Source of the DNA: a bacterium
Lineage (GTDB): Bacteria > Methylomirabilota > Methylomirabilia > CAVQYV01
Assembly (NCBI GenBank): GCA_043800755.1
Contig: JAZDMQ010000082.1
Location: 1-34,770, forward strand
DNA length: 34,770 nucleotides
Direction: 5' to 3'
Positions 1 to 20,365 of the stretch are shown piece by piece; position 1 is the first letter of the stretch; the number at the start of each line of letters is the position of its first letter. The translations under genes and the position numbers were made by a program. Under the pieces are notes generated by a model that saw only the letters and a list, made by a program, of their open reading frames with translations, was not told the origin of the DNA and ran no database searches.

Positions 1-99
1 AAGTATGCCCGCATCTGGGGCCCGGGAAAATACGATGGACAGCGGGTGGAGCGCGATTATGTGGTGCAGGATGGGGATGTCATCGAGCTACATGCCTGA
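1..99 (+). CDS. 3' end of a TGS-domain GTPase (DRG/OBG-like), partial
   Basis: Frame +1 reads KYARIWGPGKYDGQRVERDYVVQDGDVIELHA*, matching the C-terminal TGS motif of DRG-type GTPases (YARIWG..K..GQRV..D..L.DGD.IELH). Not in the ORF track because it is 5'-truncated. Confidence 0.8.
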   Translation, partial: KYARIWGPGKYDGQRVERDYVVQDGDVIELHA

Positions 100-116
100 G
101 GTCTAAGGGATGGGTC

Positions 117-602
117 ATGCGGTTTGTGGTGCATGAACACCAATCCAGCCACCATCACTTCGACTTTCGCCTGGAGATGAGTGGGGTCCTCAAATCCTGG
201 GCCGTCCCCAAGGGCCCATCCCTCAATCCGGCGGAGAGGCGCTTGGTCATCCAAGTCCCCGATCACTCCCTAAAATACGGGAGATGGGAGGGGATCATTC
301 CGGAAGGGGAGTATGGGGCAGGGGCAGTGGCCATCTGGGATGAAGGGGAATACCGAATGCTACAGGGCAAAGATACTCAGGAGCAATGGGAGAAGGGAAA
401 CCTCTCTTTTATGCTGTGGGGGAAAATATTGAAGGGCGGCTTTTCCCTGCTGAAGATGAAAGGCCGCGGGGCCGCAAAGGAGTGGCTTCTAATCAAAAAG
501 AAGGACAGCTACGCGCATGGTGGCTGGAAGATAAAGACCGCCTTGACCCCGGAGAAGCTCTCCCATCTGAAGGTAGAAAGGCCTCCCTGTCAGATGGAGT
601 AG
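117..602 (+). CDS. LigD-type DNA 3'-phosphoesterase domain protein (stand-alone PE)
   Basis: Motifs RFVVHEH..SHHHFDFRLE..GVLKSWAVPKGP, DH...Y..WEG.IPEGEYGAG.V.IWD.G and WLLIKKKD are diagnostic of LigD_N. Confidence 0.92.
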   Translation: MRFVVHEHQSSHHHFDFRLEMSGVLKSWAVPKGPSLNPAERRLVIQVPDHSLKYGRWEGIIPEGEYGAGAVAIWDEGEYRMLQGKDTQEQWEKGNLSFMLWGKILKGGFSLLKMKGRGAAKEWLLIKKKDSYAHGGWKIKTALTPEKLSHLKVERPPCQME

Positions 603-636
603 CTGGCAAGGGAGGAAAATCCCCTCCACTCCTGAT

Positions 637-678
637 CCTCAAGGCCGACACCCGGGTTCGATTCCCGCTGGGGCACCA
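637..678 (+). pseudogene. 3' half of a tRNA (probably Glu-CUC); att-site remnant
   Basis: CTCAAGGCCGACACCCGGGTTCGATTCCCGCTGGGGCACCA contains an anticodon-loop remnant, a T-arm (CGGG-TTCGATT-CCCG), an acceptor 3' strand and CCA. No complementary 5' acceptor strand or D-arm lies about 75 nt upstream. Confidence 0.75.
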
Positions 679-685
679 AAAAATG

Positions 686-719
686 AGGAGTGGCATAGAA
701 TGCCACTCCTTTCTCTTTT
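686..719 (+). terminator. Intrinsic terminator after the tRNA fragment
   Basis: AGGAGTGGCA-TAGAA-TGCCACTCCT, a perfect 10-bp stem, followed by TTCTCTTTT. Confidence 0.75.
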
Positions 720-857
720 CACACCGACATCGAGCCGAAACTCTTCTGCCTGCGTTAAGCGCCTTGCCGTCAACCTGGAAACACAAGAGCTTTGGAATTC
801 AAGAATAAAGATTTGATAACCCTCGCCACTCCTTATGGAGGCTCCATCTATCCTGCC

Positions 858-1178
858 TCATCTACCCTCTTTGATCTGGCCCCTTCGCCTCCACTCCCGA
901 TCGTAGATCTTCCCATCCCTGATGTATCCCTCGGGCTCCCCGTGTCGATCGTAGATCCGCTGCCCCTCGATCCGGTACCGGAGGCGCCAGTCCTCATCAT
1001 AGGCTCGATCCCCCCTTATATGGCCCTGGGGCTGCCAGTTCTGGTCATAGATCCGGCCATCCTTCACATAGCCCTGGAGATCCCAGTCCCGGTCGTAGGT
1101 CCGTAGATCCTCGGCCGCGCAGGATAGGGCGCACCAGAGAACGGCAAGCAAGATGGAAAGAAGGATTGCTCTTTTCAT
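858..1178 (-). CDS. Small secreted protein of five 16-aa repeats (5-fold beta-flower-like)
   Basis: Signal peptide MKRAILLSILLAVLWCALSCAA, then 5 repeats of xYDxxWxxxGxIxxxR. Confidence 0.75.
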   Translation of the reverse strand: MKRAILLSILLAVLWCALSCAAEDLRTYDRDWDLQGYVKDGRIYDQNWQPQGHIRGDRAYDEDWRLRYRIEGQRIYDRHGEPEGYIRDGKIYDREWRRRGQIKEGR

Positions 1179-1216
1179 GCCAGGATCATCGCTCTTTGAG
1201 CAGGCTACGTACTGGA

Positions 1217-4200
1217 TCAGGCGCTTGACTTGCCGGTTCGCCTGGAGCGGCTCGTTGGTCGTTCAGGTTGGATTTCATCTTGTATGCAGATCGTCGTCGC
1301 CTCCGCGGTCGAATAGATCGCATCGATTTCCCCCTGAATGGCAATGGTCCGCTGGAGCGCTGTGACGATGCGGCAGTAAGTGCGAATGTCGTCCAGCTCC
1401 AGCCGCCGCTCCCTGCGATCCTTGAGCCACTTCTTGCAGACTTGGTATCCGCCCACTTGGTATTCCCATACTGCGGCAGGCACAGGCGCGAAATACTGGG
1501 TTTGGTTGATATAGACCCGCTGCACTTCGGCGTCATAGCGGAGGCCCTGGCTCTTGGACTTCGCCACGCGACCATCGCCCTGGCCTTCGAAGCGTGCGGC
1601 CGGTGGGTCGAGGTCGGGAGATTTCAGCAGGTGCAATGTCACCAGCCGCGCGCCCAGTGCAGCCAGCTTTTCAAAGACTTTGTGGTTAGCACTGAACGGG
1701 ATCCGCGGAAAGTCCAGGCGTAGGGATCCAGCGTATCGCTCGCGGTAAGTGGGCGCATAGAGCACCGCGTAAACATAGTGGAAGATTTCCTCCGGCGTCG
1801 GCCCTGCCTGCGCCGTGCCCGGCACGGCAGACAGGTCACGGCCATATGCCTCCGCCAGCGCCGACACTACCTTCGGATTCAGGTTCGGCCGCCGCTCGGT
1901 CGGCCCATGCCGGGAGAACAGCTCGCTACGGTCCGTGTCAGGGTAGAGGTAGAGGGGGAAAAGGTAACCACGTTCCCGTGTGCGGTTAGAGACCATGCAA
2001 TCATTTGTAATCCAGTTACTGACCATTGCATGAACCCATGGCTGCCCTGCCAGTTGTCGGCAGGTCATCAGGGCCACGTTCTCCCCCGCCAGCATGTGGC
2101 GCATGACTTTTAACAGAGGTCTGGCGTGAAAACCGTTTGACTGTCCCGTGTAGTAGGTGTGGCGGACATCGAACGGTCGGTACAGAATGGGCAGGACTCT
2201 GTCCCGATTGGGGCCTGAATCACGTATGTCTTTCTGTGCCCAGGCAACCTTCCAGGATTGTACGTCCTTGCCTAATTTGAAGGCCTCTCGGGCAAGCTCC
2301 GGGTCCATTCGGGAGAAGACCGTTACCCTCTGCCACACCTCCTCCGGCGACCCGTGGATCGTCAGGCTATCGCGAGCGGTCACGATTCCCACACTGTTGA
2401 TGGGAAAGACCTCAGTAACAGGAATGAAGCCATTGTAGGAAGCGACCAGAGCTTCGTCCTGCGGCACAAAGAGAAAGAACGGTGACTTGGGCTGCACCTC
2501 CTGCCAATCCGTGTTGGCGATGTCATGTTCTCCGAGCCAGGCGTATTTTGATTTCCGCGTGCCCCAAACTTCGGCACGGCGAACAGTGCGGCAACCCTGT
2601 GCTTCACCGCGCCTGATGAAGAAGGCGATGGCGACGCCTTGGCGGATGTCGAAGACGTTCTCGTCCTTGCTACCGTCAGGGCAGGTCTCCCGTTTGAGAG
2701 AATTGCCGTGGAGGTCCAGGACATGGATCACGTCGAAAGTCTCCATGAGGCTGTGGCGCATGCCGCGAAAGGTGGGATTGTCGAGGTACCCGTGGTTGGT
2801 GATCATCCCGATGACGCCGCAGCCGGCCTGCTCGATCTTCCACTGGGCGAAGCGCAGGAACTTGACGTAGTCGTCCTGGAGCCAGTGTTTCTTTTCGCCA
2901 AAGTGCTTTCCGTCAATGTACTTGTAATCCTCAATCAAGCCCGTAATCCATTCGCCCATGTTGGACGAGATGCCTGAGTACGGCGGATTGCCGAGGATGA
3001 CGAGGATGGGCGTCTGCTTCTTGACCTCGCCGGCGAGATGCGATTCTTCGGCAAGGGAGGAGAAACCCGGAAGGCGGCTCTGGTCCAGCTCTTTCATGTC
3101 GAGGGTGTTGGTGAGGTAAAAGCGGACCCGCTCATCGTTGGCCAGGCGGTGGCCGAGTTCCTCCAGAAAGAAACCCATCTTGAGGTGACCGACCGCATAG
3201 GGGGCCATCATCAGCTCGAACGCATAGAAGTTCTTCAGGATGTGCCGCCGGATGAAGTCCTCCCGCGCGCCGGAGCCGTACTTGGCCTCGAACTCGCGGA
3301 CGGCTTCCTGCGCGGCGCGGGCGACGAAGGTCATGGTGCCGGCGGCGGGGTCAAGGAGCGTCACGCCCTCCGAGGCCAGGCCGTCCGGCTTGCCGAACTC
3401 GGTCTTGAGGAGGTTGTGCAGGGACCGGACGATGTACGAGACGACGGGCTCCGGAGTGTAATAGACGCCGCGGCGCTCGCGCTCCTCCGGGTCATACTGG
3501 GCCAAGAAGGTCTCGTAGAAATGGACAATGGGGTCGCTGCCCTTGCCCTGCTTGTAGTAGGTGTCGAGGATTCCCGGCGCGTCCGCCACGGCCAGGACCT
3601 CGGAGATGTCGTCTACGGTCCATTCCAGTTGGGCGGGCAGATCTTCCAGGGAGATGAAGCGGAAGAGGTCGCGCAGCACGCCGATGGTGTGGGGGATGCT
3701 GTCGAAAGCGGCGCGGCGGTTGAAGCCATCGCCGGTGCGCACCCGTGCGGCAAATAGGCCGTAGGCGATGGTTTGGGCGTAGAGGTCGGCGAAGTCCTCC
3801 GGCATAAGATCACCGATGAGGTATTGCCGGAAGGCCTCGTAGAAGCCGGTGAGGGGGCCGGGGACGTCGCGCTCCTCGGCAAGCTGTTGGGCCACGATGT
3901 TACGGAGGAAGCGGGTGCGCTTGGCCAGCTCGACGGCCAGGGTCTGCGCCGTGAAAGTCTTGGGAAGGGAAAAACCGAGAAAGCGGTCGAGCAAAGCCCA
4001 GAGTTCAGCCGGTTTCTCGATGGGCGGAGCAGTCTGGAGGCGGTTCAGCGTAAACGGGCGCGCCGCCAGAACCGATTCGGTCCTCTCGCCGTTGAGATAG
4101 AGACGAAACTCCAAGAAGTTAGTCAGAATGAGGTTGGGAAACGTCGAACGGTAGCGCCGCAGTTGCTCGGAGTCCTCGATCTGATCCAGTCGCTCTTCCG

Positions 4201-4447
4201 TGGGCGGCTTGGCCTCGATGTAGCCAATGATGCGATCCGTTCCGTTCCACACGCGGAAATCGGGATTCCCGGCCTCGGTGCTCTTGGGAAGCGTGGTCAC
4301 GTGGACCTTGCTCCTGCCGGTCGCCTGCGCCACCTCTCCGAGGAGCCCGCTCAGGGTGGAGTAGAAGCTCTCTTCCCGCGCATCCCCTCTCAGGGCCACG
4401 ACCGCAATCGCTTGGAGGTAGTTTTTGAAAAGGGTCTTAGGATTCAT
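1217..4447 (-). CDS. Type IIG / type ISP-like restriction-modification enzyme (nuclease + N6-adenine MTase + TRD, no helicase)
   Basis: N-terminal NPDF...GYIEAK (PD-ExK); GVYYTP; motif I LLDPAAGT; motif IV GNPPY; LQDDYVKF; C-terminal YRPFD and GGYQV..KWL of the LlaBIII-like specificity domain. Confidence 0.9.
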   Translation of the reverse strand: MNPKTLFKNYLQAIAVVALRGDAREESFYSTLSGLLGEVAQATGRSKVHVTTLPKSTEAGNPDFRVWNGTDRIIGYIEAKPPTEERLDQIEDSEQLRRYRSTFPNLILTNFLEFRLYLNGERTESVLAARPFTLNRLQTAPPIEKPAELWALLDRFLGFSLPKTFTAQTLAVELAKRTRFLRNIVAQQLAEERDVPGPLTGFYEAFRQYLIGDLMPEDFADLYAQTIAYGLFAARVRTGDGFNRRAAFDSIPHTIGVLRDLFRFISLEDLPAQLEWTVDDISEVLAVADAPGILDTYYKQGKGSDPIVHFYETFLAQYDPEERERRGVYYTPEPVVSYIVRSLHNLLKTEFGKPDGLASEGVTLLDPAAGTMTFVARAAQEAVREFEAKYGSGAREDFIRRHILKNFYAFELMMAPYAVGHLKMGFFLEELGHRLANDERVRFYLTNTLDMKELDQSRLPGFSSLAEESHLAGEVKKQTPILVILGNPPYSGISSNMGEWITGLIEDYKYIDGKHFGEKKHWLQDDYVKFLRFAQWKIEQAGCGVIGMITNHGYLDNPTFRGMRHSLMETFDVIHVLDLHGNSLKRETCPDGSKDENVFDIRQGVAIAFFIRRGEAQGCRTVRRAEVWGTRKSKYAWLGEHDIANTDWQEVQPKSPFFLFVPQDEALVASYNGFIPVTEVFPINSVGIVTARDSLTIHGSPEEVWQRVTVFSRMDPELAREAFKLGKDVQSWKVAWAQKDIRDSGPNRDRVLPILYRPFDVRHTYYTGQSNGFHARPLLKVMRHMLAGENVALMTCRQLAGQPWVHAMVSNWITNDCMVSNRTRERGYLFPLYLYPDTDRSELFSRHGPTERRPNLNPKVVSALAEAYGRDLSAVPGTAQAGPTPEEIFHYVYAVLYAPTYRERYAGSLRLDFPRIPFSANHKVFEKLAALGARLVTLHLLKSPDLDPPAARFEGQGDGRVAKSKSQGLRYDAEVQRVYINQTQYFAPVPAAVWEYQVGGYQVCKKWLKDRRERRLELDDIRTYCRIVTALQRTIAIQGEIDAIYSTAEATTICIQDEIQPERPTSRSRRTGKSSA
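1803..1835. repeat. 33-bp palindromic element inside the R-M CDS
   Basis: CCTGCCTGC-GCCGTGCC-C-GGCACGGC-AGACAGG, an imperfect hairpin of exactly 11 codons. Confidence 0.65.
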
Positions 4448-4465
4448 TCCCGTTGCCTTGTAGCT

Positions 4466-4528
4466 ACCAAATGTCGGGCTTAACTGAGGCGCATTTCTCA
4501 GCGCATTCAGTTCAAGCCGTTGTTAGCG
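4466..4528 (-). other. Integron attC-like site (63 bp, degenerate R')
   Basis: The - strand reads CGCTAAC (R'', containing the TAA stop of the upstream gene), AAC, GGCTTGAACTGA...TCAGTTAAGCC (L''/L' arms with one extrahelical G), then ATTTGGT where GTTRRRY is expected. Confidence 0.7.
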
Positions 4529-5644
4529 GTTGGTCTCGACCTTGATGCCTCCGAGGATATTTGAACTATCGAAAACCATCATTTCAGGAGCGACAGGAGA
4601 TCTTGCTGCTATCTCGCCGGCCAAGTTTGCGAGTTTGCCCAGCACCGCAGTTGCGTAATCCATGCCCTCTACCACTGAGATGTCTCCAGTGGCTGCCTTT
4701 ACAAACGAGTTAAACTGATTCTCAAAATCGCTGAAGTGATCGCAAGTAGAACGCGCTGACCGGATTTTGGCCGGGCTTTCAGGAATGGGGCAACGGAGGA
4801 TTGGCACATGAGCGCCTTCAGCGATGCTCAGTTGATCGCACAAGGAGAATAGTTCCGCCTTGGCCAGGGCCAAAGGTGCTGAATGGACTACCAGGTCTCT
4901 GTAGTTCCCTAGAAGCGTTAGCCAACCGTTGTCACTTGCTGCCACCTGCAATTCTACGGTCAGGTCGTCGGGGTCCAAAATCTTGTTTAGGACTTTCTTT
5001 TTTAGCGCTCCCATAGCCGTAATTCTCAGATTTCCCAAACTGACCATGGGCTTATATATATACTCCGCCGCAAACTCGGCTAAGTAGTCCCGCAGAATGC
5101 AGGCGTCAACCAAGAACGATTGCAGAGACAGGTACGTTAACCGGGTGAAGCCGTCTTCGAACCTGGTGCCTATTTTGAAATCGTTACGCTTAAGCTTTGC
5201 CAGAAGCTGAGTGGTGTATGCTTCTGATACTTCTCTCAGCCTCCAGTCGCACACTCTAAGTTGGTGCCCAATTCGGCTTGCTGTGTCCCACAGCAAGCCG
5301 TCTTTTCTCTTGAAACCTGCGTTGCCTATATTCCTCCATTTTCGGGCAGTCTCCTCAGTAGGCCAAGAGGTATTTCTTGTACGACAATAGGATCGCCAAT
5401 TTGGAGGCACGGTGCCCTCGACCTCAAGGGCGTGCGAATAGAAATCAACCCCAATGATCCGAAAGCCGAGAGACTCAAGGATGCCGTAAATTGCCCCATA
5501 AGCACTTGTTTCAATCTGCCATGGTATCCCTTCTATGGTGTTGGGGAGAAAACGAACGACCGGGTCATGATCGTTAATTGCTCGACATCCTCCCCCCAGA
5601 TGAAGGATACGACCGGCTGGCCATTTGTTGTCTATTTGTTTCAT
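4523..5644 (-). CDS. Hypothetical protein with HEPN RxxxxH motif (Cthe_2314-like); putative gene cassette
   Basis: 373-aa ORF with an RDLVVH motif after a predicted helical region, AT-richer composition, flanked by attC core sites. Confidence 0.65.
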   Translation of the reverse strand: MKQIDNKWPAGRILHLGGGCRAINDHDPVVRFLPNTIEGIPWQIETSAYGAIYGILESLGFRIIGVDFYSHALEVEGTVPPNWRSYCRTRNTSWPTEETARKWRNIGNAGFKRKDGLLWDTASRIGHQLRVCDWRLREVSEAYTTQLLAKLKRNDFKIGTRFEDGFTRLTYLSLQSFLVDACILRDYLAEFAAEYIYKPMVSLGNLRITAMGALKKKVLNKILDPDDLTVELQVAASDNGWLTLLGNYRDLVVHSAPLALAKAELFSLCDQLSIAEGAHVPILRCPIPESPAKIRSARSTCDHFSDFENQFNSFVKAATGDISVVEGMDYATAVLGKLANLAGEIAARSPVAPEMMVFDSSNILGGIKVETNR

Positions 5645-5655
5645 CTCTCTTCAAA

Positions 5656-5863
5656 GGCTAACGGAGCGCGATCTATCCGCACCCCGCGCGTAGCGGCCGA
5701 GCCGAAGGCTCGCAAGGGGCGCAACCGTGGAGTGTGCACGCCATCGGCATGGCTTAGCGGCAGCGGCGTGATGGCAAGACTCCTTCGCCATTGCTCAACT
5801 CGGCTGGCTCGCGGCGCATAGCCTCAGCGGCAAACCCGCTGTCCGCTACAGCCGTTGTTAGGC
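5656..5863 (-). other. Composite attC region (one complete attC with degenerate R' plus a second partial attC)
   Basis: The - strand reads GCCTAAC-AAC-GGCTGTAGCGG...CCGCTAAGCC-ATGCC-GATGGCG (about 125 bp; L arms with a bulged G). A second GC-rich half follows and ends CGCTCC-GTTAGCC 11 nt before the next ATG. Confidence 0.7.
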
Positions 5864-5871
5864 GCACGCTG

Positions 5872-6723
5872 TCAAATGCTCGAAAACCAATTTTTGTCAA
5901 CCGTGACCTTTTCAACTTCAACTTTGTCTGTCTTTACACCGAGCGATAACTCTTTGAGTTTTTGAACCAATTGGTCACCATCAACAAGGTCAATAGCGGG
6001 CGCGCCATCTCGAATCGCTTCTCTTGCGGCATCTTTGGTGAAAGTGCCCGTGGTGACAAATAATCCTTTATCTGCGCGGCCAACCATCGCGCCGCGAAAG
6101 TCGCGGATTTGGCTTGCACCAACTGCGCCTTGCCATTTTTTACACTGAAAGATAACGTGAAAACTGAGTAATCCACCAAGTCGCATGATTCCCCGCCCGT
6201 CAATTCCTCCATCTCCACTTCTACCTGTAATTTCGACTTGGATAAAGCCGGACTCGCGGAGAAACCGTTGAATCAACCGTTCAAAACCAGAAGCCTCCAT
6301 TTTGACTAAAGTGTCAAGAAGTTCCTCTTGCCATGTTGTTATTGTCTCTGCCTCTCCGAGTCCACTTTCAACTTCGAGCCGTTCTTTCTTCAATTGGTCG
6401 CGAACGACCCTTACCACTTCTCTTTCATCAATTTGACTGATAGAACGGCCATTGGGAGTGAGCGCCCATACGCCTCTGCCTGAATTCTCTAACAAGCCAT
6501 AGCGCTTCAAATATGTTCGTGTCCATGCTATCCGATACTCGAATTCCGTTTGGCCGCCTCGAGAGGAATCATGTATGACTTCCAGGTGTTCATCGGAAAG
6601 CCCCATAATCTCTGTAACCTTGCTGTTGATCTCCTCGATTGTGCCTGACCCTCCCAAGTCCTTCATTACATCGAGGACGGGATTCATGATCGCGTCATAG
6701 GTTGGAATGTTGGCTTTGTTCAT
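5872..6723 (-). CDS. mrr: Mrr-family (type IV) restriction endonuclease
   Basis: Mrr_N (PTYD.IMNPVL...EFEYRIAWTRTYLK..GLLENS.RGVW) plus Mrr_cat (FE.L...L...GF, SGDGGIDG, FQCKKW, IDLVDG). Start moved to the ATG at 6723, which has GGGAGA upstream. Confidence 0.92.
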   Translation of the reverse strand: MNKANIPTYDAIMNPVLDVMKDLGGSGTIEEINSKVTEIMGLSDEHLEVIHDSSRGGQTEFEYRIAWTRTYLKRYGLLENSGRGVWALTPNGRSISQIDEREVVRVVRDQLKKERLEVESGLGEAETITTWQEELLDTLVKMEASGFERLIQRFLRESGFIQVEITGRSGDGGIDGRGIMRLGGLLSFHVIFQCKKWQGAVGASQIRDFRGAMVGRADKGLFVTTGTFTKDAAREAIRDGAPAIDLVDGDQLVQKLKELSLGVKTDKVEVEKVTVDKNWFSSI

Positions 6724-6775
6724 TGTTCTCCCCATCAAGAGAAGCCACAATTTTTGAGATGTGCGCCAACGTCCG

Positions 6776-7324
6776 TCACGTCGGGCGGACGCAGTTGTGG
6801 TAGTCAGTGTTTGCCACAGAGTTCCGAATGCGCCACGTTCGCCAAAGTCCTTTCGGTCCACGCCGAGAGCTCCACTGCACACCTACCTGCTGAATGGCGT
6901 CGAACTCCGAAACGGAGCTTGGGATACGCTTGGGGACCTCGATGCCAACGAAGTCAAACGACTTATACTGACCGTACTCCACGATTAGAGCGAAGGTGTA
7001 CAGGCCCTCAGGACAGATGTAAGGGAACAGATGAATACTCGTTCCTACGACGGCTGCATTCGTGACATCGAGTTCCGCCCAACAAAACCGCCTCTCGTTA
7101 AATTCAAGGGTCGCTGATGTGAGCTGACGGTTCCGGAAGTCATAGTCGTCGTTGGCGGGCGACCAGAACACTCCTCGTCCACTCGAAAACTCACAAAGGC
7201 TGGGGTCGAAGATCGTCCAGTACCCCTGGCAGTCCGACGCGGTTATTCGTCCGTAGTTCAGCACGCTCGTACGGAACACCAGGCGCCTTTCCTGGACATC
7301 GGGGCGAAAGGACAGAATTTTCAC
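6776..7324 (-). CDS. Hypothetical protein (possibly frameshifted at its 5' end)
   Basis: 182-aa ORF co-oriented with the island cargo, GTG start, no recognisable motif. Confidence 0.55.
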   Translation of the reverse strand: MKILSFRPDVQERRLVFRTSVLNYGRITASDCQGYWTIFDPSLCEFSSGRGVFWSPANDDYDFRNRQLTSATLEFNERRFCWAELDVTNAAVVGTSIHLFPYICPEGLYTFALIVEYGQYKSFDFVGIEVPKRIPSSVSEFDAIQQVGVQWSSRRGPKGLWRTWRIRNSVANTDYHNCVRPT

Positions 7325-7687
7325 ACCTAGCCTCGGTCGGAGCGACTACCGAGGATCTTGCCTGTGAGATCGGTCAGGAAAGTAACAGGTCCGAGAACAT
7401 CCATGATGGTTGTCTTGCGATAGTGTTCCTTGAGGCCACATCGCGCCCGATGGCGTGGAGCGTCCGCGCCATCTATGGATTATATGATTTCCGTACAAGA
7501 ACCCTCAACTGGAGTATTGTCGGCATAAGACGCCAGGGATGTTTTCGGGTAGCCGCAGGTTTGACGCAACTCCGGGCCTCTCAAACGGACGTGCTGAGGT
7601 CTTATATGGCTTCCTGATAAGGTCCAGTTCTCTCCTGTTGTAACGCAGGGAAAGGGTAGAAGGGTAAAATTAAGCAACTACGATGGG

Positions 7688-7716
7688 TTTATACGCCCAC
7701 GAGTTGGGCAAGTCAA
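7688..7716 (-). promoter_or_regulatory. Sigma70-type promoter facing the island cargo
   Basis: - strand TTGACT-N17-TATAAA. The spacer contains an inverted repeat GCCCA-ACTCG-TGGGC. Confidence 0.55.
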
Positions 7717-7945
7717 GCGATGAATTCGCATCAGGTCTTAGGCCAGGGATCCCCCTGGACAGAGGATTCAAACCGTGACCAAAACTTGACCGAAAATATC
7801 CGAAGAAACTGGAAAGGATAGGAAGATACCGGAAAGAATAGAACGAGGTATTGTCCTGAGAATAAAGGGGGATGTCTGTAATTGCAAGCAGTAGGCCGAT
7901 TAGACGAAAATCACCAATTTGACACTCTCAAGGCCCCATCGATCC

Positions 7946-9775
7946 CTATTCGACGGTCACACTTTTCGCCAGGTTTCGCGGCTGGTCCACATCGCAGCCT
8001 TTCCGCACCGCGATGTAATAGGCCAAGAGCTGAAGCGGAATGGTCAGCACCACCGGCGTAAGCAGGGGGACAGTGCAGGGAATGGTAAATAGATGATCGA
8101 CCTTCCTCCGGAGATCCTCGTCCCCTTCATTGCCGAAGGCAATGACGATGCCATCCCTGGTTTTTACCTCTTCGATATTCCCCAAGATCTTCTCGTAGAC
8201 TCCATCCCGGGGGGCCAGTACCACCACGGGCATCTCCTCGTCAATCAGGGCAATGGGGCCGTGTTTCATCTCTCCGGCAGGATAGCCCTCGGCGTGGATA
8301 TAAGAGATCTCCTTCAGCTTGAGCGCCCCCTCCAGGGCGACGGGATAGTTGATCCCCCTGCCCAGATAGAGGAAGTGATTCCTGGTGTAGAATTGATGGC
8401 TCAGTCTTTCCAGCTCCTCGCCCTCGCGCAGCAACGACTCCAAGAGCTGTGGCAGCTTGATCAGGTCGCCGAGCATGACCTTGGCTCGATCTTCGTCGAT
8501 GACCTTTCGCTGGCGGCCCAAGTAAAGGGCCAGCAGATAGAGAACCGCGAGCTGGGAGGTGAAGGCCTTGGTGGAAGCGACCCCGATCTCCGGGCCGGCA
8601 TGGGTGAAGATGGAACAATGGCTTTCGCGGGGGATGGAGGCGCCCACCACATTGCATATGGAGATGATCGAGGCCTTTGCCCGTTTGGCTTCCTTGAGGG
8701 AGGCTAAGGTGTCCATGGTCTCGCCCGATTGGCTAATTGCGACCACCAAACTCCCCTCATCGAGGATGGGATTTCGATAGCGGAACTCGGAGCCGTAATC
8801 CACCTCCACCGGGATACGAGAGCAGGCCTCAATCATGAATTTCCCCACCAGGGCCGCATGCCAGGAGGTGCCGCAGGCGACCAGGTGCACCTTCCTTGCC
8901 TTGCGGGTGAGCTCGGAGATGGTTTCCATCTCCTCGAAGAAGATCTCCCCCGTCTCCTGGGAGAAGCGCCCCCGGATGGTGTCCCGGAAGGATCGGGGCT
9001 GCTCGTAGATCTCCTTGAGCATATAGTGCTTGTACCCCCCTTTTTCCGCCATGACCGGATCCCAGAGGATCTTCTGCACGCTCGGGGAGACCTCCTCCCC
9101 ACTGAGGTTGGTGACGTTCACCCCTTCCTGGCTGAGCACGGCCATCTCCTCGTCCTCGAGGAACAGGACATTCCGGGTATGGCTGAGGACGGCAGGGATG
9201 TCGGAGGCCAGGAAAAACTCCCCCTCCCCCAACCCGACGATGAGAGGGCTGCCACAGCGGGCTCCCACGATGCGGCTCGGGTCTTTTCTCCAGAGCACCC
9301 CAATCGCATAAGCCCCTCTGATTTTTTGAAGGGCCATGCGGACCGCACTCTCCAGATCACCATCCAGGTAGCTCTCGATCAGGTGAGCGATCACCTCGGT
9401 ATCGGTCTCGGATTTGAAACGGTGTCCTTGGGCCTGGAGTTCTTTCTTGATGGGGAGGTAATTTTCGATGATCCCATTATGGACCACGACGATCTCTCCG
9501 CTGCAGTCGGTGTGGGGATGGGCATTCTCCTCGCTCGGTCGGCCGTGGGTGGCCCAACGGGTATGCCCGACCCCGATGTGTCCGTCGAGGTTCTTTCCCC
9601 AGAGTGCCTTTTCCAGTTCCTTGACCTTCCCCACGCACCGGTAGATCACCATCTTCCCGTCCTGGATCACCGCCACCCCGGCGGAATCGTATCCCCGATA
9701 CTCCATACGCTTTAACCCATCCAGAAGGATGGGAAGGACCTTCTGCTGTCCGATGTAGCCCACAATCCCACACAT
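7946..9775 (-). CDS. glmS: Glutamine-fructose-6-phosphate transaminase
   Basis: MCGIVG start, GHTRWATHG, AGPEIGVASTKAF, and C-terminal DQPRNLAKSVTVE. Confidence 0.99.
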   Translation of the reverse strand: MCGIVGYIGQQKVLPILLDGLKRMEYRGYDSAGVAVIQDGKMVIYRCVGKVKELEKALWGKNLDGHIGVGHTRWATHGRPSEENAHPHTDCSGEIVVVHNGIIENYLPIKKELQAQGHRFKSETDTEVIAHLIESYLDGDLESAVRMALQKIRGAYAIGVLWRKDPSRIVGARCGSPLIVGLGEGEFFLASDIPAVLSHTRNVLFLEDEEMAVLSQEGVNVTNLSGEEVSPSVQKILWDPVMAEKGGYKHYMLKEIYEQPRSFRDTIRGRFSQETGEIFFEEMETISELTRKARKVHLVACGTSWHAALVGKFMIEACSRIPVEVDYGSEFRYRNPILDEGSLVVAISQSGETMDTLASLKEAKRAKASIISICNVVGASIPRESHCSIFTHAGPEIGVASTKAFTSQLAVLYLLALYLGRQRKVIDEDRAKVMLGDLIKLPQLLESLLREGEELERLSHQFYTRNHFLYLGRGINYPVALEGALKLKEISYIHAEGYPAGEMKHGPIALIDEEMPVVVLAPRDGVYEKILGNIEEVKTRDGIVIAFGNEGDEDLRRKVDHLFTIPCTVPLLTPVVLTIPLQLLAYYIAVRKGCDVDQPRNLAKSVTVE

Positions 9776-17000: not shown

Positions 17001-17064
17001 ATCCTGATGAATGGAAGGGCCCGGTCAGCGCATTCCGACCGGGAGAATCGGCTCGATCAACGGC

Positions 17065-17523
17065 TCAGGCCTTACGATGCTCCTCCAGGGCCTCCCCCAC
17101 CCACTTTACCATCCCCTGCACGAACTTGCTGCAAAGGTTTTTGTGCAGGTTTGCTTCCTTGAACTTCTTCTGCCCCTCCGGGGTGCTCAGGTCGCACTGG
17201 GTGAGGTTGAAGCAGAGGACCGTGCCGAACTCCCGTTCGAATCTCTCGTAGAGCTCTCGGGCTAGAACATAGATCTGGTCGCGGGCGGCCGTATCCTTCG
17301 GGTCCATCCGCCCCATGGCCAGCCCCAGGGCCAGGATCCCCCCGGTCAGGGCCCCGCAGACCGATCCCTTGCGTCCGATCCCACCCCCAAAACCGGTGGC
17401 CACCTTGGGGACCACCTCTGCCCCGGGCAGCCCATAAAGCTCCTGACAGGACTTCAACACTGACTCGGCACAGTTGTAACCACTATCGTAGATCTGTTGG
17501 GTTCTCTCCTCTCGCTCGCTCAA
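17065..17523 (-). CDS. C_GCAxxG_C_C family putative redox protein
   Basis: GYNCAESV, GFGGG.G..G.VCGALTG, G...C, and a final C. Confidence 0.88.
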   Translation of the reverse strand: MSEREERTQQIYDSGYNCAESVLKSCQELYGLPGAEVVPKVATGFGGGIGRKGSVCGALTGGILALGLAMGRMDPKDTAARDQIYVLARELYERFEREFGTVLCFNLTQCDLSTPEGQKKFKEANLHKNLCSKFVQGMVKWVGEALEEHRKA

Positions 17524-17544
17524 CTTAATCGGCTCCTCCCATTA

Positions 17545-19599
<2,055 letters not shown>

Positions 19600-19685
19600 T
19601 CAAATGATCCCGCCGGCTTCATCCCCGGCCTATAGCCCGATAGACCATTATAGCGAAACATGGCCCGCCAAAAAAGAAAAATGTG

Positions 19686-19714
19686 TTGACAGGCGGAGTG
19701 CAGAAGCTTAAAAT
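19686..19714 (+). promoter_or_regulatory. Sigma70 promoter of the thi operon
   Basis: TTGACA-N17-TAAAAT immediately before the riboswitch. Confidence 0.75.
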
Positions 19715-19733
19715 AAAAAATAGAAGAAAGCAT

Positions 19734-19824
19734 GCCGCTAGGGGCGCTCCTTGGCTGAGAAGGTGGCCATCCGGCCACCGACCCTTAGCACCTGACCTGG
19801 GTAATGCCAGCGTAGGGAAGCGGC
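19734..19824 (+). ncRNA. TPP riboswitch aptamer
   Basis: AGGGGcGC...GCTGAGA...ACCC...ACCTGA.C.GG.TAAT.CC.GCGTAGGGAA consensus; P1 GCCGCT/AGCGGC; upstream of thiE and thiC. Confidence 0.95.
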
Positions 19825-19844
19825 TTTGGGATTTCCTAAGATCG

Positions 19845-19880
19845 AAAGCCGCAAGGGATATGTGAATCTGCGGCTTTTTT
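19845..19880 (+). terminator. Riboswitch-controlled terminator
   Basis: AAAGCCGCA...TGCGGCTTTTTT. Its 5' arm can instead pair with GCGGCTTT at the aptamer 3' end (antiterminator). Confidence 0.8.
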
Positions 19881-19903
19881 GTTTCTCGAAAGGGGACTTC
19901 TCG

Positions 19904-20365
19904 ATGGAGCGGGAATTTGCCGGCCATCCCCTGGTGGGTGTTGGCGGGATTGTCCTCAAGGGAGGCAAGGTCCTCCTGGTAAGAAGGGGCAAGCAGCCGG
20001 GGTTTGGGAAATGGAGCATCCCAGGGGGCATGGTGGAGTTGGGGGAGACCCTGCAGGAGGCCATCCAGCGCGAGGTTCGAGAGGAGTGCGGCATCGAGAT
20101 CGAATTGGCGGATGTGGTGGCGGTCCTGGAGCGGATCATCCCCCAGGAAGATCATCGGGTTCGTTATCATTATGTGTTGATTGATTTCTTGGGCTATTGG
20201 AGGAGTGGAGAGATTCAGCCCGCCTCCGATATCAGTGAGGCGCGTTGGGCCGATCCTTCCGAGATGGAGGCCCTGGAGATGACGGAGCGGACCCAGCAGG
20301 TCGTCTTCGAGGCCCTCGGACTGGCAGAACGACAAGGGATCTACTACGGAGGGGCAAAGGGTTGA
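19904..20365 (+). CDS. Nudix hydrolase
   Basis: Nudix box GGMVELGETLQEAIQREVREECG. Start at the ATG after AAGGGG. Confidence 0.92.
   Translation: MEREFAGHPLVGVGGIVLKGGKVLLVRRGKQPGFGKWSIPGGMVELGETLQEAIQREVREECGIEIELADVVAVLERIIPQEDHRVRYHYVLIDFLGYWRSGEIQPASDISEARWADPSEMEALEMTERTQQVVFEALGLAERQGIYYGGAKG

Follow-up and report, generated by a model that had tools for sequence, protein, structure and literature searches.

Two adjacent genes with cassette-like boundaries

The DNA analysed here (34,770 nucleotides, hereafter the window) forms the start of contig C45 (JAZDMQ010000082.1) of a bacterial genome of the class Methylomirabilia (G000; assembly GCA_043800755.1, 2.43 Mb in 166 contigs). Its minus strand carries, side by side, an mrr gene for a type IV restriction endonuclease and an open reading frame (ORF) for a protein of 373 amino acids (aa) with an Rx4H motif of the HEPN type, and each of the two is followed by an imperfect hairpin resembling attC, the recombination site of integron cassettes. 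A preliminary description of this DNA had taken the pair for former integron cassettes that persist without an integrase, and all the motifs it named were found at the positions it gave. The elements on which this proposal rests are listed below, R1 and R2 being two covariance models that are presented in the next section.

6761-6770, minus strand: GTTGGCGCAC, core-like sequence bounding the mrr unit at its 5' end, with 37 nt between it and the mrr ATG (6723)
5872-6723, minus strand: mrr, encoding an Mrr-type type IV restriction endonuclease of 283 aa that starts at the ATG at 6723, stop codon TGA at 5874-5872
5739-5863, minus strand: candidate degenerate attC site of the mrr cassette, 125 nt, matched over the full length of R1 and R2
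5663-5738, minus strand: 76-nt spacer that separates the mrr attC-like site from the GTTAGCC core
5656-5662, minus strand: GTTAGCC, intact core site at the 5' boundary of the presumed 373-aa cassette, 11 nt before the ATG (5644)
4523-5644, minus strand: 373-aa ORF, stop codon TAA at 4525-4523
4466-4528, minus strand: candidate degenerate attC site of the 373-aa cassette, 63 nt, matched over the full length of R1 and R2

The Mrr protein contains the domains Mrr_N (PF14338, 7.7e-23) and Mrr_cat (PF04471, 2.7e-29) and matches the PADLOC model mREase_IV (5e-32). Downstream of its gene, the segment GTGCGCCTAAC at 5867-5857 includes an R'' box GCCTAAC (5863-5857), which lies 8 nt past the stop codon and matches the strict consensus RYYYAAC. 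The unit was said to begin with a sequence nearly complementary to its end, and this is borne out, since GTTGGCGCAC (6770-6761) is complementary to GTGCGCCTAAC save one unpaired T. An L'' arm GGCT-G-TAGCGG-A-CAG pairs with the L' arm CTGCCGCTAAGCC (5763-5751) and leaves two bases unpaired, G5849 and A5842, six pairs apart, a layout also found in canonical sites (e.g. the site of locus L125). In the position of the R' box, the alignment to R2 reads GATGGCG, the expected GTT having become GAT.

The 373-aa unit follows the same plan in a more compact form. As first described, it starts with GTTAGCC and ends with an R'' box CGCTAAC (4528-4522), inside which the TAA stop codon falls. Its L'' arm GGCTT-G-AACTGA (4518-4507) pairs with the L' arm TCAGTTAAGCC (4487-4477) with G4513 left unpaired, and the R' position reads ATTTGGT in the R2 alignment, so that GTT has become ATT and the G is lost (A at 4472). 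The single extrahelical G that the preliminary description assigned to each L arm is consequently right for this site and incomplete for the mrr site, where an A is extrahelical as well.

Both sites thus possess an imperfect L''/L' stem with extrahelical bases in the L'' arm, and neither has an R' core GTTRRRY with GTT at the crossover point. Intact cores occur only where each unit starts, at its 5' end (GTTGGCG at 6770-6764 and GTTAGCC at 5662-5656). The sites also share a 12-mer, CTAACAACGGCT, of which the 2.43-Mb genome contains exactly two copies, both here, each just 3' of a gene and on the gene strand. The other 250 genomes of the class have nine copies, none of them clustered, and on this count we rejected the 12-mer as a repeat family of the class. 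Usual attC sites are about 57-141 nt long, a range that includes the 63 and 125 nt found here. A group of clustered attC sites that lacks an integron integrase (CALIN) comprises two or more of them within 4 kb, on one strand and with no intI nearby; the two sites of the window lie 1.27 kb apart, both on the minus strand.

As is to be expected of sites with degenerate R' boxes, strict motif-plus-fold scanners for canonical attC sites found nothing in the window. A search of both 3' regions by blastn against 72,556 plasmids left one without any match and the other with chance-level matches only. Neither hairpin is followed by a T-run, and a terminator scan called neither. Two alternative delimitations of the mrr 3' region were dismissed: a 206-nt attC site running from GCCTAAC to GTTAGCC is backed neither by folding nor by the covariance models, and the segment after the mrr attC-like site is no second copy of the mrr leader, as 50/500 shuffles score equally.

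Covariance models of the attC-like sites

The models were built from sites near homologues of the 373-aa protein. Fourteen attC-like sites, none of them from G000, served as seeds and were aligned with MAFFT. As RNAalifold predicted no structure on this alignment, a structure of R and L boxes was written by hand and then tested. It covaries in the 14 seeds, where 66% of the cells pair compared with 55% in shuffled alignments; none of 500 shuffles reached the pairing or the covariation score of the seeds, and sliding the partner columns lowered pairing to 26-50%. All 14 seeds have the G and the second T of GTT in their R' boxes, and 12 of them have the first T as well; the sites of the window read ATT and GAT. 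R1 was built from the 14 seeds. In a search of 620 kb of homologue loci it matched 24 sites at E 0.05 or better, every one of them on the gene strand, and from these R2 was rebuilt. In the same loci R2 found 33 sites at E 2 or better, again all co-oriented with the genes. Control DNA (88 kb) yielded a single match of at least 18 bits, and this one has the integron integrase gene of genome G255 about 0.6 kb away. The covariance model is a real attC model.

The window was searched on both strands with filters off, up to E 10 and with E-values scaled to the window. R1 returned two matches only, at 4466-4528 (minus strand, 21.6 bits, E 0.0033) and at 5739-5863 (minus strand, 17.0 bits, E 0.055), and R2 placed the same two at its head with 22.8 bits (E 0.004) and 18.0 bits (E 0.05), the next best matches (11.6 and 9.0 bits) lying elsewhere. 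Both start at the proposed R'' boxes, at or just after the stop codons and on the correct strand. The preliminary description had made its reading depend on covariance-model matches here and on homologues associated with attC sites; matches to home-made models were obtained at both places, and homologues of both genes sit elsewhere in co-oriented attC arrays, as detailed below.

Homologues in attC arrays

The 373-aa protein has 145 homologues, taxonomically scattered and without a family name. For 26 homologues from genomes and 80 from metagenomes (106 loci), we retrieved the surrounding DNA; the tallies of genomes and loci in this work, and locus L150, include the unpublished genomes G030, G087 and G220, on which alone no claim is made. 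In many homologues the stop codon lies inside or beside GCTAAC, a GTTAG core follows 55-135 nt further on, and GTTAGCC or GTTAGCG stands 10-25 nt before the ATG, the latter feature being seen in the cassette-borne copies of L011, L050, L051, L016, L054, L014, L059 and L071. The register of the window gene, with TAA inside R'', is common to L014, L015, L050 and L072, the last with 81% identity. At least one attC match was found in 19/99 loci of the family. An attC site starts between -12 and +45 nt from the stop codon in 10 of the 84 testable 3' flanks and ends at most 60 nt before the start in 7 of the 84 testable 5' flanks. Relaxed motifs are more widespread: YTAAC occurs at the stop codon in 22/83 distinct flanks compared with 4.4% of random windows, and GTTAR within 50 nt upstream in 22/86 compared with 5.8%, the fractions rising to 8/11 and 10/13 for homologues with at least 55% identity.

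Homologues of Mrr provided a second set of 17 loci in 16 other genomes of the class, which had no part in model building. All but one of their 24 attC matches at E 5 or better are co-oriented, and in 6/17 loci a co-oriented attC site of 20-45 bits starts between -5 and +7 nt from the stop codon. The copy in G170 is located just downstream of a frameshifted intI.

Among the 106 loci of the 373-aa family, no homologue of the window Mrr, of the type IIG enzyme encoded downstream of the pair or of ORF182, encoded upstream of it, was found. In Pseudomonas orientalis (L032:4951-5670), a homologue of the 373-aa protein adjoins UzuA and an Mrr-like PADLOC candidate of the group PDC-S02, which also matches the window Mrr. 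In view of this neighbourhood, the pairing of an Mrr-like protein with a 373-aa homologue may recur outside integrons.

Integrases and other attC sites

An intI gene over the TIGR02249 cut-off is present in 83/251 genomes of the class. In G000 the search for intI returned none over this cut-off; the best scores (91 bits compared with 265) belong to two genes of XerC/D size located on other contigs. The sister genome G001 shows only a partial match to the integron integrase (C4:112825-113403, 207 bits over model positions 1-189), which probably represents an intI that was truncated.

G000 contains further attC sites. A canonical array of four co-oriented sites (22.7-31 bits under R1) lies on contig C76 at 17055-20170 (L129:7056-10171, minus strand), and three of the four re-score at 28-38 bits under R2. 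These sites flank an MGS-like gene, an orphan ORF, an SDR gene and an IS630-type transposase gene, with no integrase nearby, and this array is a better CALIN than the pair in the window. Single matches of 22-34 bits occur within about 1 kb of contig ends (C6:487-570, C68:17407-17470, C134:26551-26619, C1:21191-21248 and C156:20073-20133). Their position makes it likely that the assembly breaks at cassette arrays, and a larger array, now in fragments, may be present in the genome.

An island with tRNA-Glu-type ends

The minus-strand order in the window is accD, folC, glmU, glmS, ORF182, mrr, the 373-aa ORF, a type IIG/type ISP restriction-modification (R-M) gene and a small ORF for a secreted repeat protein. 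In the nearest relative G001, ligD and glmS are convergent neighbours and the region corresponding to about 603-7945 is missing, so that the whole gene row between them is a 7.3-kb insertion absent from that genome. Its features other than the two units, together with its flanks, are as follows.

3-602, plus strand: ligD phosphoesterase gene, end part
638-682, plus strand: 3' half of tRNA-Glu(CTC), slightly decayed, opening with CTCAAGGCC at the left island end, from alignment to the tRNA-Glu of G001
685-711, no strand: terminator-like hairpin, bidirectional, at the downstream end of the minus-strand gene row
858-1178, minus strand: small secreted protein of YD..W-type repeats
1217-4447, minus strand: type IIG/type ISP R-M enzyme, with Type_ISP_C, N6_Mtase and Eco57I domains (PADLOC REase_MTase_IIG, 6e-256)
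6776-7324, minus strand: ORF182, putative orphan gene of 182 aa upstream of the mrr unit
7927-7935, plus strand: second copy of CTCAAGGCC at the right island end, preceded by a 270-nt arm (7669-7926)
7946-9775, minus strand: glmS

A 9-bp direct repeat, CTCAAGGCC (638-646 and 7927-7935), frames the insertion and matches the anticodon-loop region of tRNA-Glu(CTC). Its three copies in the window against 0.75 expected are not significant alone. The left copy opens a tRNA 3' half with 93% identity to the native gene on contig C49, and the sequence after it resembles the native downstream flank in G001. On the right, the 270-nt arm is conserved and elsewhere abuts tRNA-like 3' halves (G000:C85 and G001:C3). 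Such ends are arranged as would be expected for a circle with the order arm, core and tRNA half that integrated at a secondary site. No integrase gene was found within the island, and the window yielded no tRNA or tmRNA call.

The native tRNA-Gln/tRNA-Glu(CTC) pair of G000 (C49:4769-10358, L163) is followed by a type I R-M island with HsdR, a Schlafen/AlbA_2 protein, HsdS and an HTH-M78 pair. In the same tRNA region of G001, repeated tRNA-Glu copies have caspase, CHAT and patatin genes between them. The tRNA-Glu region looks like a hotspot for defence islands.

Within the row, mrr and the 373-aa ORF are separated by a 227-nt spacer and the 373-aa ORF and the type IIG gene by 75 nt, the ATG of the latter lying 18 nt past the end of the attC-like site of the former. 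A gene-free gap of 620 nt separates glmS from ORF182, which has no family in Pfam, NCBIfam or PADLOC and is without homologues among the 250 further genomes of the class. A promoter-like site at 7508-7479 was set aside as no evidence (2 found compared with 2.9 expected), and an Rfam scan gave one sub-threshold ribozyme match, which is irrelevant here. The YD..W-repeat protein has a paralogue on contig C42 (66% aa identity), and copies of it adjoin tRNA-Glu in G001. Positions 1-141 of the window recur without any difference at the end of contig C16 (24480-24620), an overlap in the assembly graph from which it follows that ligD continues on C16.

The 373-aa protein

The 373-aa protein combines an N-terminal beta-rich part with a helical HEPN-like domain. 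R249 and H254 of its Rx4H motif, which agrees with the Rx4-6H pattern of HEPN domains, are invariant in 32 sequences. Searches of Pfam, NCBIfam and PADLOC gave no match. With Foldseek against the Protein Data Bank (PDB) no structure reached E 0.001, and searching PDB sequences by profile brought nothing usable. The AlphaFold (AF2) model is confident (pLDDT 87, pTM 0.88). In a wide structural search with this protein, HEPN chains appeared at Z 7.2-7.9 and low root-mean-square deviation (rmsd), including 2hsb_A (Z 7.9, rmsd 2.9, 126 aligned), 6tug_A (7.9), 1wol_A (7.7) and 3o10_A (7.5), amid unrelated helical bundles at Z 8.0-8.6. Profile matches were weak, to HEPN_Apea in 1/32 members (E 0.059) and to HEPN_Cthe2314 in 1/32 members (E 0.064), and a neighbour of the protein in the Atlas is named Apea-like HEPN (score 0.95, a weak language-model lead). 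Around homologues in 14 longer loci, 13/111 neighbouring ORFs, spread over 9 loci, match PADLOC at E 1e-8 or better (a count without a baseline), among them Thoeris ThsB, NsnA, UzuA, SIR2 and a Mrr-like candidate family. The motif, the weak HEPN leads and the defence genes in the neighbourhood make a role in defence plausible. In the earlier account both members of the pair were anti-phage genes; by family this suits Mrr, as it does the type IIG enzyme, and for the 373-aa protein it leans on the motif, a weak fold match and gene neighbourhoods.

Discussion

The worn-out recombination sites that still lie beside both genes make an integron origin very probable. Our reading, to which we give a probability of roughly 0.8, is that mrr and the 373-aa gene constitute a real but decayed two-cassette array without an integrase, resembling a CALIN, that now resides in an integrated defence island. 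The two genes would be former cassettes, arranged head to tail on the minus strand, each retaining a core-like GTT upstream of its start and an attC site at or beside its stop codon. These sites appear to keep the R'' box, the L''/L' stem and the unpaired bases of the L'' arm and to have lost the GTT of R', where the integron integrase cuts. Since the conserved triplet is gone from both, neither site is probably still competent for recombination, and with no integrase in the assembly either, the pair is most likely frozen. The preliminary description saw cassettes captured from an array and fixed next to a type IIG R-M gene as their R' sites decayed; the integron origin and the degenerate R' boxes stand, and the setting has to be redrawn, as the cassettes are not simply beside an R-M gene but inside a 7.3-kb island with tRNA-Glu-type ends. 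This island is probably a small stack of independent defences targeting nucleic acids and read as one minus-strand unit, in which modified DNA would be the target of Mrr and unmodified DNA that of the type IIG enzyme, with the 373-aa protein as a putative HEPN-type RNase. We infer that the cassettes passed from integron to island, that they lost recombination activity and that the row is co-transcribed. As for the order of events, capture may have preceded the decay of R', or the 3' junction may have been non-canonical from the start.

Several observations weigh against this reading. CGCTAAC, the R'' box of the 373-aa site, misses the strict consensus RYYYAAC and fits only YTAAC, and in the family at large strict motifs are rare, with RYYYAAC at the stop codon in 3/83 flanks and GTTRRRY upstream in 7/86. 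No attC site was found in 80/99 loci of the 373-aa family. Folding of the bottom strands, which was proposed at the outset as a check, gave a divided answer: the 3' hairpin of the 373-aa gene is more stable than shuffled sequences (z -2.9; 3/200 shuffles as good, folded as DNA), whereas the first 76 nt 3' of mrr (z -0.4) and the spacer between mrr and the 373-aa ORF, folded whole as 231 nt (z -1.15), fold no better than shuffles. The 76-nt spacer at 5663-5738 is unexplained, having no covariance-model match, no significant fold and no repeat family. No attC match lies upstream of GTTGGCGCAC in the R2 search; besides, an attC site is lacking for both ORF182 and the type IIG gene, and no covariance-model match lies 3' of the latter. 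The scores of the two sites are low, their E-values scaled to the whole genome (about 0.3 and 3.5) being marginal and the calibration of R1 and R2 being rough; in the whole-genome search, in which only 150 candidates were scored, they are not among the matches listed and better sites lie elsewhere. Since the seeds were chosen by motif and fold near homologues, matches in those loci are also partly circular. Finally, with an assembly in 166 contigs, an intI may lie on unassembled DNA.

What other histories could have produced this locus? That the hairpins are ordinary terminators or chance palindromes, with TAAC and GTT motifs by coincidence, would agree with the poor fold 3' of mrr and the modest E-values, and yet this view is scarcely tenable and already largely refuted: the hairpins lack a T-run and escape the terminator scan, the 12-mer CTAACAACGGCT marks these two places alone in the genome, the sole two R1 matches of the window fall at the two stop codons on the correct strand, and homologues have canonical attC sites in the same register. 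The genes might instead be native to defence islands and on their way into integrons, the hairpins being forerunners of attC sites that need a few more mutations before they work. This would agree with the many loci of the 373-aa family in which no attC was found (80/99) and would parallel a pseudo-attC in Marinobacter that Kieffer et al., in the part of their preprint at hand, read as recruitment from islands to integrons. We find it quite improbable, as two adjacent and co-oriented units, each with an upstream core and a downstream attC-like site, have the structure of an array, as the stop codon in R'' and the leader GTTAGCC-N11-ATG are common to canonical cassettes of 60-81% identity, and as two such sites would hardly arise de novo side by side.

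The remaining alternatives accept cassettes and differ on what happened to them. A two-cassette unit could have been placed by an integrase acting in trans at a non-canonical site of the attG type, in which case R' was never canonical at the 3' junction. The 5' GTTGGCG pairs with the last R'' box CGCTAAC through six Watson-Crick pairs and one G-T, as the closure of a two-cassette circle would give; cassettes at attG sites are mentioned in the portion of Kieffer et al. available, and the class is rich in intI. We consider this insertion unlikely on balance, since the crossover G should stay with the cassette, yet position 4472 is an A, and since the internal mrr site is degenerate at R' too (GAT), which goes beyond a model of the terminal junction. 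It is very improbable, in turn, that the array is still mobilisable, so that an integrase in trans could excise or shuffle both cassettes. The R'' boxes, L stems and unpaired bases are intact for such an event, GTTAGCC and GTTGGCG cores exist and other attC arrays are present in the genome; still, each site breaks (ATT, GAT) an R' triplet that is near-invariant in the 14 seeds, and the assembly lacks intI. The decayed, integrase-less array thus remains our preferred reading. A wider proposal, which we regard as tentative and rather doubtful, would see in the Rx4H family of the 373-aa protein an unnamed single-gene HEPN-type anti-phage effector that spreads mainly as a cassette, and in the locus a case of cassettes caught while being handed to an integrative defence island of the tRNA-Glu type, integrons then feeding islands and not only drawing from them.

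Comparison with known systems

The integron route for defence genes is already described, and the window adds no new kind of system. Defence genes occur as cassettes in sedentary chromosomal and mobile integrons according to Darracq et al. (bioRxiv 10.1101/2024.07.02.601686) and as the BRiCs of Kieffer et al. (bioRxiv 10.1101/2024.07.02.601719), as far as the parts of these preprints at hand describe them. The pair in the window resembles those cassettes, which there include small single-gene defences such as Mrr_cat nucleases, type IV restriction enzymes and HEPN-like proteins; the comparison is one of kinds, made without aligning sequences to the systems in these parts, and ties the 373-aa family to no named one. 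As in the CALINs that Darracq et al. define in the portion available, two co-oriented attC-like sites each lie 3' of a gene, and intI is absent from the contig and, over the cut-off, from the genome as a whole. Unlike in CALINs, they are degenerate at R' and score 18-23 bits under R2, compared with 28-38 bits for the genome's own sites on C76. The island, for its part, is similar to integrative islands targeted to tRNA genes in its 9-bp direct repeat matching tRNA-Glu(CTC) and in the tRNA 3' half that it carries; it differs from them in having no integrase gene and in its site between ligD and glmS instead of a tRNA gene, its arms being laid out as for a circle entering a secondary site.

Besides documenting that a little-studied bacterial class is rich in integrons, this work offers a clean case, at the level of sequence, in which the integron origin of two defence genes can be read despite decayed recombination sites. 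The 373-aa family, with its invariant Rx4H motif, often borne on cassettes and often beside known defence genes, is a cheap candidate for phage-defence screens. A close parallel is the homologue of Tragantia that the accessible part of Kieffer et al. places in a small defence island of Marinobacter, beside a pseudo-attC mismatched at the crossover point. In both cases a defence gene lies outside an integron, in an island, next to an attC-like site that is mismatched at the crossover and probably non-recombinogenic. The window differs from what is given there in showing two adjacent units with both of their boundaries, and it comes from a different phylum-level group. Both loci bear on the question whether defence genes flow from islands to integrons or the reverse: the evidence from the window favours a flow from integron to island, and Kieffer et al., in the same part of their text, read the Marinobacter case in the opposite direction.

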